Counted from the first letter of the stretch, positions 13,210 through 19,293 are shown. The stretch: 64,000 bases of DNA from an uncultured delta proteobacterium (GCA_963745025.1 CAVUWD010000012.1:1-64000); one strand, 5' to 3'. Notes: a model not told the origin generated them from the sequence alone. Translations and numbers: made by a program.

Positions 13210-14817
13210 ATGGAGAAGATCGTCTCGAACCTGCGTACGGGGTCGGCCGAGTTCGCCGAGAACCGCCGGAAGATGAAGGAAGAGGTCGACAAGCTTCGTG
13301 AGCGCCTCGCCAGGGCGCGCGAGGGCGGACCACCGGAATCGCGGAAGCGTCACATCGAGCGCGGGAAGCTCCTCGTCCACGATCGAATCGAGAAGCTAAT
13401 CGATCCAGGCACACCGTTCCTCGAACTCTCGCCGCTCGCCGCCTTCGACATGTACGGCGACGACGCTCCCTCCTCGGGGCTCGTGACCGGCATCTGCAGG
13501 ATCGAGGGCCGCGAGGCGATCGTCATCGCTAACGACGCCACGGTGAAGGGCGGCACGATGTATCCGATCACCGTGAAGAAGCAGCTGCGCGCGCAGCGCA
13601 TCTCGATGGACAATCGCCTCCCGACCGTCTACCTCGTGGACTCCGGCGGCGCCTTTCTGCCGCTGCAGGCAGAGATCTTCCCCGACGAAACCCACGGGGG
13701 ACAGACATTCTACAACGAGGCGGTGCTGTCCTCGATGGGCGTCCCGCAAGTCGCGGCGGTGATGGGGTCATGCACGGCGGGCGGCGCCTACGTTCCCGCG
13801 ATGTGCGACGAGAACATCATCGTCAAGCAGCTGGGCACGATCTTCCTCGGCGGCCCGCCGCTCGTGAAGGCCGCAACCGGCGAGGTCGTGACGGCCGAGG
13901 AGCTCGGCGGCGGGGACGTGCACACGCGGGTCAGCGGCGTCTCGGACCACCTTGCCGAGAACGACGAGCACGCGCTCGAGATCATTCGCTCGGTCTTTTC
14001 GAATTTGCCGAGGCCGAAGAAGTTTCCCTTCGAGCGGGAGGCCCCCGAGGCGCCCGCGTACGATCCGGAGGAGATCTACGGCCTAGTGCCTTGGGACACG
14101 CGCAAGCCCTACGAGTGTCGCGAGCTGATCGCTCGGCTGGTCGACGGCAGCCGCTTCCACGAGTTCAAGGCGCGCTACGGAACGACGATCGTCACCGGCT
14201 GGGCACGCCTCCATGGCTATACCGTCGGCATTCTCGCCAACAACGGCGTGCTGTTCAGCGAGTGTGCGCTGAAGGCCGCACACTTCATCGAGATCTGCTG
14301 CCAGCGGAAGATCCCGCTCGTGTTTCTGCAGAACATCACGGGCTACATGGTCGGGCGGAAGTACGAGCACCAGGGGATCACCAAGGACGGCGCCAAGATG
14401 GTGCATGCGGTCTCGACCGCGCAGGTACCGAAGTTCACGGTGATCGTCGGCGCCTCGCACGGCGCGGGCAACTACGGCATGTGCGGGCGGGCCTATCGGC
14501 CGCGGCTGCTCTTCATGTGGCCGGGCAGCCGCATCTCGGTGATGGGCGGCGAGCAAGCCGCCCACACGCTCGTGCAGGTGAAGCAGGAGCAGCTCGGCAA
14601 GCAGGGAAAGACCCTCGCCAAGGAAGAGGCCAACGCCATCATGGCCCCGGTTCTCGAGAAGTACGACTACGAGTCGAGCGCGTACTACTCGACGGCTCGC
14701 ATCTGGGACGACGGCATCCTCGACCCGCTCGAGACGCGCGACGTGCTCGGGTTGGGGATCGAGATGTCGCGAAACGCGCCCGTGCCGGACGCCAAGCACG
14801 GCGTGTTCCGCATGTAG
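13210..14817 (+). CDS. Acyl-CoA carboxylase carboxyltransferase subunit (methylcrotonyl-/geranyl-CoA carboxylase beta, LiuB/AtuC-like)
   Basis: [35 protein letters not shown] and [12 protein letters not shown], ending in GVFRM. Confidence 0.93.
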
Positions 14818-14870
14818 TCCCCTCGGCGCGCTCGCCGCGCCAGCGTTACGTCCGCGGAGGAGAACGGATC

Positions 14871-15419
14871 ATGCCGAGAATCAGCGGAGTCGAGCGCGAG
14901 ACGGTCGAGCCATCGATCGAGAAGGCCTTTCAGGGGCAGGAGAAGAAGTGGGGTGCGGTGCTCGCGCCCTACCCGCTCTATGCGCGGAGACCGACGATTT
15001 TCAGCGCCGTGCAGGGCATGTGGATGGGACTCGTCCGATCCGGCCTCCTCGACCGCGGGCTCGTCTCGCTGCTCAACCGACGAGTGGCTTCGCTCAATGG
15101 CTGCGTTTTTTGACAGGACATCAACGCTGCCGTCGGTAGCGAGCTCGGCGTCCCGGAAGAGAAGATCCTCGCCCTTGCCGATTACGCGACGAGCCCTCTC
15201 TTCAACGAGGCCGAGCGCGTCGCGCTGGAGTACGCGGATTCGATGACGATCACGGGTCGCGAGGTCCCCGACGAGCTTTTCGCGCGCTTGCGGCGCTTCT
15301 ACGACGAAGACGCGGTGGTCGAGTTGACGGCGACGATTGCGTGGGAGAATTCTTCGAGCAAGTTCAACCGCGCGCTGCGCGTTCCCTCGCAGGAGCTCTG
15401 GAGGGGAAGGCGGTCATGA
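14871..15419 (+). CDS. AhpD/carboxymuconolactone decarboxylase-like selenoprotein (CxxU), with in-frame TGA at 15111-15113
   Basis: GGAGGAG RBS. RRVASLNGCVF-TGA-QDINAAVG continues in frame with AhpD-like sequence (FNEAERVALEYAD, VVELTATIAWEN, SKFNRAL) to TGA 15417; 182 codons. Confidence 0.85.
15114..15153 (+). other. Candidate bacterial SECIS element
   Basis: GCUGCC-GUC-GGUAGC hairpin (15126-15140); the loop G follows 18 nt after UGA; possible lower stem GGAC/GUCC. Confidence 0.7.
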
Positions 15420-15524
15420 CCACGGTAAGCGAAGTCGCACTCGACGTTTTTCGCATCGTGACCTACATCCAGCACCCCCGCGTTGGGCCACTGGACGTTC
15501 GTGGCCAGCTCGGCGTTCGCTGAC

Positions 15525-15686
15525 CTATTCCAGCAGATTTTGCGCCAGGCGGCGGCCGAGGAAGAGGCCGCCAGCGGTGCCCAGCACGCTGGCAAAATAG
15601 GCTGTCATCAGGCCAGCGAACATGCCGAGCTTCCAGCCAACCCAGCCGCCGTCAACCGCGAAGACGATCGAGAAGAATCGAATCAT
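15525..15686 (-). CDS. Small Gly-rich membrane protein (53 aa, absent from the ORF track)
   Basis: MIRFFSIVFAVDGGWVGWKLGMFAGLMTAYFASVLGTAGGLFLGRRLAQNLLE; starts 4 nt after the M24 peptidase stop. Confidence 0.65.
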   Translation of the reverse strand: MIRFFSIVFAVDGGWVGWKLGMFAGLMTAYFASVLGTAGGLFLGRRLAQNLLE

Positions 15687-15690
15687 CCGC

Positions 15691-16887
15691 TCAGCCGAGG
15701 ATTCTCACGAGCTCGCGCTGGGGAGGCGTGTAGACCCTCGGACCTTCCTCCTCCAAGACCACGTTGATCTCGGAGCGCACGCCGAATTCGGGAAGATAGA
15801 TCCCCGGCTCGATCGAAAAGCAGAGTCCCGCGACCAGCGCCCGAGTGTCGTGGGTTTCGAGGTCGTCGAGATTTGCGCCGTCCCCATGGTCGGCATGGGC
15901 TCCGATGTTGTGGCCGGTACGGTGCACGAAGAAATCGCCGAAACCGCGGGCGGCGATGAAATCGCGCACGGCGCGGTCGACCATCCAGCCCTCGAGCCGC
16001 TCGCGGACGCCGTACCTCTGACGCACGGTGTCGAGCCCGAGATCCCGAGCGCGCACGACGGTATCGAATACCTCCGCCACCCGTGCCGGCGGGCTCTGGC
16101 CCGCGAAGCCCATCCAGGTGACGTCGGCGAAGACCGCCGCGGGATCGTTCTCCTTCGCCCACAGATCGATCAGCACGAGCGAGCCTTCGGCGCATGGCCG
16201 CGCGACCTCGGCTCGCGGCACGTAGTGCGGATCCCCGGCGTGGGCGTCGACGGCCACGATCGGCGGATGATCGGTGATCAGCCCCGCGCACTCGAACGCC
16301 TCCATGATTCGGTGCTGGACCTCGGTCTCGAGCGCAGGCCGGCCGGCACGGATCCGCTCGGCGACGAAGCGAAACGCATCATCTTTGGCGCGATCGATCG
16401 CGAGCGCCGCCCGGCGATGACTGTCGATCTGATCGGCGGTCAGCCGACAGAGAAAGTGCTGCACGAGATCCGCGGACGAGACGACCTCGGTGCCGAACGA
16501 GCGCACCAGCTCGATCGTGCCGGCGTCCACCCGGGAGAGGTAGGGAATCGCGCCGAGCGCGCAGTACTCCATCGCTACCGATCGGCGCCCGGCGAGGATC
16601 TCGCGCAACCGGTCGTGAAGCTCGTGGTAGCCGGCATAGCGGACCACCCGCCCCGGCCGTCGCGGCAGGCTGCCGGACTCGATCCGGTGAACCAGCAGCA
16701 CCGGCTCGCCCTCGCGCGGGACGAGATAGGCCCAGCGGCGGGTGAGCAGGTGCCCGGCGAGATCGAGAGCGGCGAGCGCGGTCGGGTTCTGCCCGCGGAA
16801 ATCCCACAGAAGCCATCCGTCGAGGCCGTGCTCGGCGAGATGATCCTGGATCTGCCGAATCGGCAGCGCGGGCCGTGGGGTGTTCAT
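15691..16887 (-). CDS. Xaa-Pro aminopeptidase (M24 family)
   Basis: GDPHY, LIDLWAK, ADVTW, HRTGH, SIEPGIY and GVRSEIN metal ligands. Confidence 0.9.
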   Translation of the reverse strand: MNTPRPALPIRQIQDHLAEHGLDGWLLWDFRGQNPTALAALDLAGHLLTRRWAYLVPREGEPVLLVHRIESGSLPRRPGRVVRYAGYHELHDRLREILAGRRSVAMEYCALGAIPYLSRVDAGTIELVRSFGTEVVSSADLVQHFLCRLTADQIDSHRRAALAIDRAKDDAFRFVAERIRAGRPALETEVQHRIMEAFECAGLITDHPPIVAVDAHAGDPHYVPRAEVARPCAEGSLVLIDLWAKENDPAAVFADVTWMGFAGQSPPARVAEVFDTVVRARDLGLDTVRQRYGVRERLEGWMVDRAVRDFIAARGFGDFFVHRTGHNIGAHADHGDGANLDDLETHDTRALVAGLCFSIEPGIYLPEFGVRSEINVVLEEEGPRVYTPPQRELVRILG

Positions 16888-16915
16888 GAATCACGAGGCG
16901 ATCGTGTGTCGTTGG

Positions 16916-17404
16916 TCACCGCTTCACGATGCGACCGGTGCCGAGGTAGACGTACTCGAGCTCGAGCGAGCTGAGCGGCGTGTCGCGTTCCGCGCGCCGC
17001 ACCCATTCGACGCGCGCGACGAACAGCGTGTGGTCGCCCGCCTCGTACTCTGCTTCGACGGCGCAGTCGAAACCGACCATCGCCTCGGCGAGAAGCGGAA
17101 CGCCGCTCGGAGCCTCGACGGTCGCGAACCCTCCGAGGTTGTTCTCCACCCGCGCGGACGGCGAGTAGAAGAAATCCTCCAGCTTGCGGTTTCGGCGGCC
17201 GACGACGTTCAAGGCGAAGCGTTGCGCCGCGCGGATCAGGCCGTTCGAGAGATGGGCGCGGTCCACGGAAGCCAGGATCAACGGCGGCTCTCCGGATACC
17301 TGGGTCACCCATGAAGACGACATTCCGTGTCGGACGTCGCCGTGGCGCACGGTCAGCACGTAGATGCCGGTCGTGATCTCTTTCAGGTCTTGGATCAGTG
17401 CCAT
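16916..17404 (-). CDS. Flavin reductase-like protein
   Basis: TGIYVLT, SWVTQVSGEPPL, FALNV, SGVPLL and AGDHTLFVA. Confidence 0.85.
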   Translation of the reverse strand: MALIQDLKEITTGIYVLTVRHGDVRHGMSSSWVTQVSGEPPLILASVDRAHLSNGLIRAAQRFALNVVGRRNRKLEDFFYSPSARVENNLGGFATVEAPSGVPLLAEAMVGFDCAVEAEYEAGDHTLFVARVEWVRRAERDTPLSSLELEYVYLGTGRIVKR

Positions 17405-17438
17405 TGCATTCGCTCGAAAAAACTCGGAATCTCTCCGC

Positions 17439-18326
17439 GTGGCCGCACCGATAGAATACATCACGCGCATCCGCGAAAACTACGCCCGGCTGGGGTACAA
17501 GCCCTATGCGTGGGTCGACAACACGGCGAGTCCTCCGCCTTGGAAGCCGCTCGAGAAGCCGCTTTCCGAGTGCCGGATCGGGCTCGTGGCGTCGGGCGGA
17601 ATCTACCTCAGCGGGCAGGTCGCGTTTCACTGGCGCGACGATACGACGTTTCGAGAAATCCCGGCGAATGTACGCAGCGAAGATCTCCGGGCGACGCACT
17701 TCGCCTATGACCTGAGCGATGCGCGGCGCGACCCGAACGTCGTTTTCCCGATCGATACGCTGCGGCGACTGGTGGCGGAGGGGCTCGTCGGCGAGCTCGC
17801 CGGGCACGCGTTCACGTTCATGGGCGGAATCTACTCGACACGCAAGGTCACAGAAGAACTGGCGCCGAAGATCACCGAGCGGCTCGTCGCTGAGCGAGTC
17901 GATGCGGCGCTGTTCGTCCCCGTTTGACCGGTCTGCCATCAGTCCGTCGGGCTGATTGCGAGACAGGTCGAGGCTGCGGGCATCTCGACTCTGTGCATGA
18001 CGAGCGCCCTCGACATCACTCGGAGCGTGAATCCGCCGCGCGCCGCCTTTCTCGACTATCCGCTCGGCCACACCACCGGGAAGCCGAGCGATCCCGAGCT
18101 TCAGCGGGCGATCCTCGTCGAAGCGCTCGAGGCCTTCTCGTCTCTCGCCGAGCCGGGCACCGTGAAGCCCCTACCTTTCCGCTGGTCGGACGACGAAGAC
18201 TGGAAGCGAATCGCATTCGCGGGCGGCGACGAGCGCCGGCCGCGTTACGACACGCCGCAATACCAGAACGAGGAAGACCGACGGCGCGCCGAGGATCCCG
18301 CCGCCTGCGCGACCTGCATCACTTGA
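17439..18326 (+). CDS. PrdB/GrdB-like reductase selenoprotein B (UxxC), with in-frame TGA at 17925-17927
   Basis: ORFs 17364..17927 and 17997..18326 share a frame. The join reads VDAALFVPV-U-PVCHQSVGLIARQVEAAGIST. Other family motifs: KPLSECRIGLVASGG, DPNVVFP and PPRAAFLDYPLGH. Confidence 0.88.
17928..17967 (+). other. Candidate bacterial SECIS element
   Basis: AUCAGUCC-GUC-GGGCUGAU hairpin (17938-17956); the loop G follows 18 nt after UGA; lower stem GUCU/AGAC. Confidence 0.72.
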
Positions 18327-19293
18327 CCGGCGCGGGCGGCTGGGAAGGATTGGCGTCGGCGAGCGGATCATCCGCGGGCTCGTCGACGATCGATCCGCCT
18401 TTGTATTCCGTCTTCAGCCACACGTGACCATACTTGTCCCAGGCAGTCACGTGGCCGTCGAGCACGCCGTCGCGGTACGTGCCTTCCTCTTCTTTCTGGC
18501 CGTTGTCGTGCCAGATCGTGTAGTTGCCCTCTGGCTTGCCGTCATGGAAGAGCGCTTGCTCGGCTTGCTGGCCGTTCTCGTGCCAGGCGCGGTACCAGTC
18601 ATCCACCTTGCCGCTGCGGTAGAGAATCTCCGAGCGCTTCTGCCCGTTGCGGTGCCAACTCGTCCATAGCCCTTCGCGTATACCGTTCTTGTACTCGCCC
18701 TGCTGCTCCTTCTGACCGTTGTCGTGCCACATGGTGTAGAGGCGCTCGAGTACGCCGTGGACGTAGTAGCCCTCGACCTCCTTCTGGCCGTTGCCGTGCC
18801 AGCGAATCCACGCGCCTTGCTTGAAGCCGTCCTCGAAGTGGCCCTCCTCCCATTTCTGCCCATTGTCGTGCCACGCGGCGAAGCTTTGTAGCTTGCCATC
18901 CTCGTAGATCGTGATGGCCTCGACCCTGCCGTTCGGATGCCAACGCTTCCACGTACCGTCACGGCGGCCGTTGCGGTACTGGCCGACCTCCTGCTTCGTG
19001 CCGGAATCGTAGAGCTCGACGTATGGGCCGTGTCGGATTGGATCGCCATGCGCGTCTTCGATCTGGCACCACTTCTCGGTGAGCTTCTTGAGGCCGGGGG
19101 TACCCGTCTCCTTCGAGACGACCTGCTTTGTGCCGAACGGGCACGGTGTCGTCACGTACTCGATGACCTCGTGGACGATGCCCGTCTTGCAGGCGGAGAG
19201 AGCCGCGGCGACGAGCGATACGATGATGGCGATGCCTCCGCGCAACGGCCGGACACGTCGACGAGCCGGCTGCCAACGGCTACTCGTGCTCAC
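18319..19293 (-). CDS. MORN-variant repeat (YwqK-like) lipoprotein
   Basis: Lipobox-like LSAC after a hydrophobic stretch; about 8 repeats of WHxNGQKxxEGxY. Confidence 0.82.
   Translation of the reverse strand: MSTSSRWQPARRRVRPLRGGIAIIVSLVAAALSACKTGIVHEVIEYVTTPCPFGTKQVVSKETGTPGLKKLTEKWCQIEDAHGDPIRHGPYVELYDSGTKQEVGQYRNGRRDGTWKRWHPNGRVEAITIYEDGKLQSFAAWHDNGQKWEEGHFEDGFKQGAWIRWHGNGQKEVEGYYVHGVLERLYTMWHDNGQKEQQGEYKNGIREGLWTSWHRNGQKRSEILYRSGKVDDWYRAWHENGQQAEQALFHDGKPEGNYTIWHDNGQKEEEGTYRDGVLDGHVTAWDKYGHVWLKTEYKGGSIVDEPADDPLADANPSQPPAPVK

Follow-up and report, generated by a model that had tools for sequence, protein, structure and literature searches.

A 64,000-nucleotide stretch of DNA from an uncultured delta proteobacterium (GCA_963745025.1, CAVUWD010000012.1:1-64000; hereafter the window) carries two genes that are interrupted by an in-frame TGA codon and that are, very probably, genuine selenoprotein genes. 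Gene 1 encodes an AhpD/CMD-like protein related to YciW, and gene 2 encodes a protein resembling PrdB. On the basis of sequence comparison, we hold with high confidence that both TGA codons are read as selenocysteine (Sec) by the ordinary bacterial mechanism, with ordinary selenocysteine insertion sequence (SECIS) hairpins directly downstream. A preliminary description of the window had proposed two unrelated selenoproteins, and this proposal holds. The genes belong to the AhpD/CMD-like and the PrdB-like families, the TGA is retained in relatives, and the hairpin covaries. The same description took the motif shared by the two hairpins for a lineage-specific consensus, which was not borne out (see section on the shared motif).

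The two genes and their in-frame TGA codons

The window (C12:1-64000) is part of a metagenome-assembled genome (MAG) of 5.65 Mb in 20 contigs, designated here by C and a number, with 65.9% G+C, an estimated completeness of 92.65% and a contamination of 7.6%. Its nearest named relatives are MAGs that carry the label delta proteobacterium or Candidatus Binatia. The TGA at 15111-15113 continues the frame that starts 80 codons earlier with the ATG at 14871, and the TGA at 17925-17927 is in frame with an open reading frame (ORF) opening at 17364. In both cases, exactly 18 nt separate the TGA from a GTC flanked by CC and GG (CAGGACATCAACGCTGCC-GTC-GG and CCGGTCTGCCATCAGTCC-GTC-GG). Direct reading of the sequence confirmed the spacing and flanks that had been reported. 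Under translation table 11, gene 1 appears as two ORFs (13770..15113 and 15243..15419), and so does gene 2 (17364..17927 and 17997..18326). The ORF track thus breaks both genes, as had been noted. They are hidden from a plain ORF track only, since both families have long been known as selenoprotein families. The features are listed in Table 1.

Table 1. Position of the two genes, their TGA codons and hairpins, and the genes lying between them
Feature	Position	Strand	Details
Gene 1, AhpD/CMD-like YciW-related selenoprotein (very probable)	14871..15419	+	182 residues; stop TGA 15417-15419
In-frame TGA of gene 1, probable Sec codon (U81)	15111..15113	+	from column comparison with relatives
Upper hairpin of the probable SECIS of gene 1	15125..15141	+	CGCUGCC-GUC-GGUAGCG; 7-bp stem; -9.3 kcal/mol alone
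M24 metallopeptidase-like gene	15691-16887	-	PF00557; between genes 1 and 2
Flavin-reductase-like gene	16916-17404	-	PF01613; divergent from gene 2
Gene 2, stand-alone PrdB-like selenoprotein (very probable)	~17439..18326	+	motif U-P-V-C-H (UxxC); stop TGA 18324-18326
In-frame TGA of gene 2, probable Sec codon (U188, numbered from 17364)	17925..17927	+	from column comparison with relatives
Upper hairpin of the probable SECIS of gene 2	17938..17956	+	AUCAGUCC-GUC-GGGCUGAU; 8-bp stem

The ATG of gene 1 is preceded at a distance of 8 nt by GGAGGAG, and its product contains the redox motif CxxU (C78-V-F-U81). The CMD profile PF02627 matches residues 41-123, with U81 inside (40.3 bits, cut-off 23). 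With PF02627 over its gathering score and Sec in CxxU, gene 1 belongs to the CMD/AhpD-like selenoproteins. The profile NF053654, 'YciW-related (seleno)protein', matches over positions 1-178 of 179 with 294.4 bits, U being scored as C. This is narrowly under the curated cut-off, and gene 1 is therefore filed as a close relative and not as a certified equivalog. Five genomes of the same family contain its orthologues (72-91% identity), all of which have one or two in-frame TGA codons. To compare the Sec column, 30 loci per gene were fetched from 41 genomes of the same class. For gene 1, the codon is TGA in 23 loci, TGC in six and ATT in one. Cysteine (Cys) at the TGA position of homologues, which had been suggested as a check, is thus found in six of the 30 loci. 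Of the five close paralogues in the same genome, three carry GGC as the loop, 20 nt from the UGA. A degraded copy of gene 1 was also observed on another contig (locus L047, C11:301984-302310, minus strand), with 70% identity over residues 38-149. The C-V-F of CxxU is gone from this copy and one TGA and one TAG lie in frame; a SECIS-like hairpin with CC-AUG-GG is retained.

The frame of gene 2 is open from the ATG at 17364, but a start at this position would overlap the divergent flavin-reductase gene. Hence, the GTG at 17439 is inferred to be the start. Alignments with orthologues begin at query residues 1-4, the query beginning at 17442. The GRDB profile PF07355 gives 43.7 bits (cut-off 22) in a match that ends just before U, and the PrdB profile TIGR04483 gives 179.5 bits over residues 56-275, with U inside. 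A PF07355 match over the gathering score together with Sec in UxxC (U-P-V-C) places gene 2 in the selenoprotein B superfamily. All matches listed among the 41 genomes of the same class have an internal TGA (42/42), and the Sec column of the fetched loci is TGA throughout (30/30). A scan of species-representative genomes returned 241 relatives, the best 80 of which were used for the column and hairpin figures. In these 80, which are MAGs of several phyla, the column is again TGA without exception. Their labels are delta proteobacteria/Candidatus Binatia (the closest, with 79-86% identity), Entotheonella, Acidobacteriota, Methylomirabilota, Chloroflexi and Desulfobacterota. No neighbour is widely kept over the 80 orthologue loci, the best one being present in 26, and a search with PF09338 for a PrdA/GrdE-type partner gave no match in the genome, nor in any of 14 control genomes. 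Gene 2 is therefore regarded as a stand-alone PrdB-like selenoprotein gene.

In relatives of gene 2, coding similarity runs on both sides of the TGA. The two TGA sites were also looked up in contigs assembled from other metagenome runs, one of which may be the source sample. The TGA at 15111 is spanned by contigs of three other runs, and no change is found there among the differences listed. The contig covering the TGA at 17925 in run X1 has three differences, none of them at the TGA. A TGC or TGT in other DNA, which had been put forward as grounds for refuting the proposal, is therefore not seen among these differences.

Hairpins downstream of the TGA codons

In both genes, the loop of the hairpin begins 18 nt after the UGA. 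The hairpin encodes Ala-Ala-Val-Gly-Ser in gene 1 and His-Gln-Ser-Val-Gly-Leu-Ile in gene 2. The folding energy of the gene 2 element stands out (z-score -3.55), with only one of 200 shuffled sequences as stable. For covariation, 49 TGA-containing sequences were aligned without gaps, 21 from the gene 1 family and 28 from the gene 2 family. An 8-pair helix (columns 14-21/25-32) was paired in 89.0% of the cells compared with 62.3% after shuffling, and none of 500 shuffles reached this value. Both sides had changed in 104 cells compared with 36.7 in the shuffles, and controls in which the helix was slid paired in 18-41%. Pooling two families inflates the count of double changes, so the counts within each family are safer. 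Within the gene 1 family, compensatory changes occur at pairs 16-30 (GC 12, UA 4) and 18-28 (UA 13, CG 6). The gene 2 family shows them at pairs 15-31 (UA 17, CG 11) and 19-27 (UA 14, AU 10, GC 2). Moreover, seven of the eight pairs of the gene 2 stem are intact in all 27 relatives of the alignment, and among the best 80 of the 241 orthologues all eight pairs are formed in 71 and seven in the other nine.

The presence of the hairpin is tied to that of the TGA. Sec forms of the gene 1 family have a mean of 6.2 of the eight pairs (21 sequences) compared with 2.7 in the seven non-Sec forms. The peptide A-V-G encoded by the loop region of this family occurs in Sec forms only, Cys forms having unrelated residues, and the tripeptides A-V-G and S-V-G were seen only with a TGA codon. 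The downstream hairpin at 18 nt covaries and accompanies TGA but not TGC; it thus behaves as the SECIS it had been taken for. The claim that the lower stems pair in spite of their different sequences is true of these two sequences only. In the gene 2 family, several lower-stem pairs are kept in only 9-15 of 27 relatives, and in the gene 1 family in only 5-13 of 20.

Two substitutions in the contigs of other runs fall within the hairpins, 15137 T>C and 17951 G>A. Both are synonymous third-position changes, and they turn a G-U pair of the element into G-C and a U-G pair into U-A, respectively.

Selenocysteine machinery

The search for selA, selB, selC and selD, proposed as a check in the preliminary description, returned a complete set with curated cut-offs passed. 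The genes selA (571 bits), selB (397 bits) and selD (385 bits) are clustered at C20:20417-25012 on the minus strand and are all above their curated cut-offs. A tRNA-Sec with the anticodon TCA was found at C15:65252-65346 (aragorn; RF01852, 76.5 bits). With selA, selB, selD and tRNA-Sec all present, the genome has the Sec-decoding trait. SelD itself appears as a selenoprotein with an in-frame TGA (…KVKAAGUAAKLGPADL…) and a GGC-loop hairpin 17 nt after the UGA.

By analogy with the known bacterial system, decoding would proceed as follows. Once a ribosome reaches the UGA, the mRNA located 14-31 nt further on would fold into a short hairpin. In its small apical loop a G and a U would be exposed, some 18-19 nt from the UGA, for SelB to bind. 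Loaded with Sec-tRNA(Sec), SelB would deliver Sec and pre-empt termination by release factor 2. The product of gene 1 would then be a thiol-selenol oxidoreductase of the AhpD/CMD fold (peroxidase-related) with a CxxU centre. The product of gene 2, with UxxC at its centre, would be a stand-alone homologue of the subunit known from amino-acid reductases as selenoprotein B or PrdB. All of this, from the binding of SelB and the insertion of Sec to the roles of the two enzymes, is inferred.

The shared motif and alternative explanations

The preliminary description presented UGA-N16-CCGUCGG as a lineage-specific SECIS consensus that could uncover a larger selenoproteome. Over both strands, the whole genome contains 12 copies of the exact motif TGA-N16-CCGTCGG. 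Other spacings in the same phase give 9-14 occurrences and those in other phases 31-51, so the scan that had been proposed reveals no enrichment. Only two of the 23 supported selenoprotein genes have the motif, and the other 10 of the 12 hits lie outside supported genes. A covariance model (R1), the second check that had been put forward, was built from the 49 sequences, and 150 of 6553 first-look candidates in the genome were scored. It recovered seven loci, namely four PrdB-like genes, two YciW-related genes and the degraded gene 1 copy (C11:302146-302190), and beyond these nothing fell below E = 1 among the candidates scored. The seven loci thus all fall into the families of genes 1 and 2, and one locus is a pseudogene.

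The constraints within the hairpin are also more relaxed than the proposed consensus. Counted from the U of UGA, positions C20, G22, U23 and G26 are invariant or nearly so, G22 and U23 being kept in at least 90% of the 49 sequences. The inner pair 21-25 is non-standard in 11 of the 49. At the third loop base, the 80 gene 2 orthologues have GUG (46), GUC (20), GUU (11) or GUA (3), so that GUN is found in 80/80. In gene 2 the loop triplet GUN specifies the Val of H-Q-S/T-V-G-L, and in gene 1 that of A-A-V-G. CC completes a codon that reads GCC, TCC or ACC, and GG supplies the first two bases of a codon for Gly. The third loop base is the free wobble position of this Val, and the C-G pair that closes the loop on the inside is dispensable. 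The two genes have CC-GUC-GG in common because codons +6 to +8 specify X-Val-Gly in either protein and the genome has 66% G+C. A constrained C20, G22, U23 and G26 with a free wobble base corresponds to the general pattern of bacterial SECIS (bSECIS) elements, N-G-U-N-N on a stem of 6-8 bp. The shared hairpin is the usual bacterial signal and not a new recoding signal.

A lineage-specific consensus would account for the same heptamer at the same spacing in two unrelated genes 2.8 kb apart, and a GUN loop at 18 nt does occur in six or seven of the 23 selenoprotein genes. However, the motif scan and, for the candidates scored, the covariance model speak against it, as do the free third base, the failing inner pair and the GGC loop at 20 nt in most close paralogues of gene 1. 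The same hairpin also accompanies gene 2 in MAGs labelled as other phyla, which ties it to the gene family and not to the lineage. We therefore consider such a consensus very unlikely. The prediction of a larger selenoproteome was correct in itself, as at least 23 TGA-containing genes were found, but the motif would not have revealed them. With the exact motif in only two of the 23 and varied loops in the others, it would have missed the selenoproteome.

Still less probable is that the TGA codons are true stops, i.e., that the genes are pseudogenes, naturally split ORFs or assembly errors, with hairpins as by-products of the coding sequence. This is how table 11 reads them, a decayed copy of gene 1 with a TGA and a TAG does occur in this genome, and hairpins of comparable size are common at 66% G+C (594 of 2858 coding-like in-frame TGA codons). 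True stops would hardly be retained in 30/30 loci and 80/80 independent assemblies for gene 2, or in 23/30 loci for gene 1, where the codon is otherwise mostly TGC. Single Pfam/NCBIfam domains span the site, no conserved start of its own is found for the downstream part, and the hairpin is lost exactly where the TGA is replaced. The contigs of other runs likewise have no change at either TGA among the differences listed. A reassignment of UGA to Trp, Gly or Cys throughout the genome would also produce open frames across the TGA codons, and nothing specific argues for it. Both genes end in TGA, and in neighbouring genes that were tested, such as those for an aldo-keto reductase, YkuD and a CoA-transferase, the Pfam domain finishes at a TGA stop. 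A full set of Sec machinery is present, and the aligned residue in homologues is Cys. This is the least credible of the explanations, and its probability is close to nil.

Several observations weigh against the Sec reading itself and were taken into account. Both genes score under the curated cut-off of their closest family profile, narrowly for gene 1 (294.4 versus 310 bits for NF053654) and by far for gene 2 (179.5 versus 300 bits for TIGR04483), which is therefore not certified as an equivalog either. The folding energy of the gene 1 element is ordinary (z-score -0.15, with 86 of 200 shuffles equally good). One control of the covariation test can be exceeded through kinship of the sequences alone, and the pooled double-change count is inflated, as mentioned above. 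An Rfam search of 14500-18800 returned three weak chance hits and no SECIS family; this is nevertheless expected, as the whole region is without an Rfam family. With 7.6% contamination, the machinery and the two genes might conceivably come from different organisms, but the orthologues recur in relatives. Finally, frame continuity, family membership, TGA/TGC alternation, hairpin covariation and the presence of the machinery were all computed from DNA contigs only. The position of the TGA codons at the known redox Cys/Sec site of both families counted in favour of the Sec reading, which we retain.

Selenoproteome of the genome

The census of further selenoprotein genes combined coding-like in-frame TGA codons, a self-tblastn for pairs of Cys and stop, a hairpin screen and, finally, Pfam/NCBIfam profiles. 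At least 23 TGA-containing genes are supported, all from known selenoprotein families. This is a lower bound since the census depended on paralogues or a strong hairpin. The most numerous are the CMD/AhpD-like (7), PrdB-like (5, i.e., five paralogues in one genome) and peroxiredoxin genes (4, with T-x-x-U). One gene each encodes a ResA-like WAxxUGC protein (NF041054, 310.5 versus 300 bits), a glutaredoxin-like protein, a DsbA-like protein, an ArsM-like methyltransferase (UxxG), a rhodanese-like protein (UxxS, below profile cut-offs), a UGSC protein (NF041046, 154.1 versus 125 bits) and SelD. Truncation is suspected for three of these genes (C14:93560, C5:38431 and C16:1089803). Across the 23 genes, the hairpin loops begin 17-23 nt after the UGA and read GUC, GUG, GUA, GUU, GGC, GGA, GGAC, GGUC(U), CGUGU, CGUGACC and AGGCC. 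These elements, too, are compatible with the general bSECIS model (PMC13188914).

Codon usage and 4th-order periodic Markov scores were used as a loose pre-filter only, leaving 2858 candidates. As a de novo means of picking Sec codons, these scores are too weak at high G+C, gene 2 itself scoring below its own antisense shadow. The self-tblastn of read-through peptides yielded 172 candidates with an aligned Cys or stop. Most of them were artefacts, such as duplicated regions aligning real stops, antisense frames and TGATG gene overlaps, and two were dropped early as the aligned stop was TAG. Of the 38 candidates submitted to Pfam, 17 were supported and 21 rejected. L098, L099 and L108-L110 belong to a repeat element, and L103 and L114 represent a CoA-transferase followed by the next gene. 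L102, L113, L106 and L117-L119 were also rejected. A second, hairpin-based screen gave 72 more candidates, two of which were kept by eye from their peptides (the rhodanese-like and UGSC proteins).

Other in-frame TGA codons came to light during the census. The gene of a NuoM-like NADH dehydrogenase subunit (C6:361209, minus strand, …AYSSVSHLGFVMLGLASR*TSKA…) contains one at a site occupied by Ala, Val or Gly in the paralogues; Sec is less likely here than a pseudogene or an error of assembly. Dispersed repeats (C10:163682, C16:85425, C5:173506, C13:321972, C2:195190 and a 21-member cluster) align TGA with TGA. Their translation (…RFRISSAGGE[ED]*G…) has no Pfam match. The repeats have the look of non-coding or mobile DNA present in many copies, and they give rise to false selenoprotein calls. 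Two molybdopterin-oxidoreductase matches with one internal TGA each (C16:402524-404290 and C13:231982-232332, both on the minus strand) may be Sec-containing formate dehydrogenase. In two places, selenoprotein genes are adjacent. Two CMD-like CxxU genes lie in tandem at C16:139849-141050, and a PrdB-like gene adjoins a peroxiredoxin (T-P-V-U) gene at C14:137396-138684, both on the minus strand. These may be selenoprotein operons.

Genomic context

According to Pfam, the genes between and around the pair encode a carboxyltransferase, the M24 peptidase-like and flavin-reductase-like proteins, a MORN-repeat protein and a thiamine pyrophosphate (TPP) enzyme. The neighbours seen in the window are kept in just 3-4 of the 80 gene 2 orthologue loci, and hence no functional link is inferred. 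The space between gene 1 and the M24 gene holds an ORF for a hydrophobic product of 53 residues (15525-15686, minus strand), for which Pfam gave no match. It is kept in three of the 80 loci, all of close relatives.

Comparison with known systems

Both genes and their hairpins fit known kinds, i.e., bSECIS elements, AhpD/CMD-like CxxU proteins and PrdB-family UxxC proteins. In the Escherichia coli fdhF element, the G and U of the loop are one position further from the UGA than here, and the stem has a bulged U. The bSECIS model of Zhang and Gladyshev, as summarized in PMC13188914, describes a loop of 3-9 nt, a stem of 4-16 bp and a spacing of 16-37 nt, with a G within the first two loop positions that is usually followed by G or U. 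The two hairpins fall within these limits with their GUC loop, their 7- and 8-bp stems, G22-U23 in the loop and 18 nt of spacing. Like the elements of that summary, they are located directly 3' of the UGA inside the coding region and have a small loop (3 nt, or 5 nt with the inner pair open) in which G comes first and then U. Nothing essential differs from the model as summarized; here the spacing is at the short end of the range, and the loop coincides with a conserved Val codon.

The family table of the same 2026 review lists CMD-like proteins (PF02627, CxxU), AhpD-like proteins (TIGR01926, CxxU) and D-proline reductase (TIGR04483, UxxC) (PMC13188914). In an ocean survey, AhpD-like and PrdB proteins rank with the selenoproteins of highest abundance in the environment (PMC2398784, Table 2), and 'Proline reductase PrdB' is a top selenoprotein family of ocean metagenomes, with 235 Sec and 110 Cys forms (PMC2398784). 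Gene 1 shares with the AhpD- and CMD-like proteins and NF053654 the CMD fold, CxxU at the AhpD active-site position and a nearly full-length alignment, and it differs from NF053654 in the score just below the cut-off, with U scored as C. Gene 2 has about 220 residues homologous to PrdB and to glycine reductase selenoprotein B, with Sec at the UxxC site. In contrast to PrdB, it scores far below the cut-off of TIGR04483, has no neighbour conserved across the 80 loci and is one of five paralogues in a single genome.

Large selenoproteomes have been described in Deltaproteobacteria, with 31 selenoprotein genes in Syntrophobacter fumaroxidans and 57 in the Olavius delta-1 symbiont (PMC1976440). As far as these are described there, the present genome resembles them in having a large selenoproteome, in the predominance of thiol-oxidoreductase-like families and in having several paralogues per family. 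Here, the genes (at least 23) are mostly AhpD-like, PrdB-like and peroxiredoxin genes; FrhD and HdrA were not searched for. BSepDB, according to its description, contains 57,630 selenoproteins from 16,621 species, about 3.5 per species (PMC13326102); a count of 23 is well above this value and is lower than the 31 and 57 of the two Deltaproteobacteria. A limited literature search found no paper linking Binatia/Binatota with selenoproteins; supplements of the papers cited here may list such genomes.

Significance

The data also invite a broader and rather doubtful reading, in which the PrdB-like family would be an obligate-Sec enzyme and CC-GUN-GG at 18 nt the preferred minimal SelB-binding module. 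In the PrdB-like column, TGA is found in 110 of 110 loci examined, with no Cys form among them. The family may be spread over several phyla with an almost frozen SECIS, with five paralogues and no PrdA-type partner found in this genome. The AhpD-like subfamily may have reached the CC-GUN-GG loop independently, in which case the module would impose X-Val-Gly on unrelated proteins.

Plain ORF calling splits genes 1 and 2 and, likewise, at least 21 further genes of this genome. Hence, Sec-aware gene calling is needed for this uncultured lineage. The biological value of the finding is modest. It adds one more selenoprotein-rich genome and provides a clean case of a SECIS element constraining the sequence of the protein in which it is embedded.

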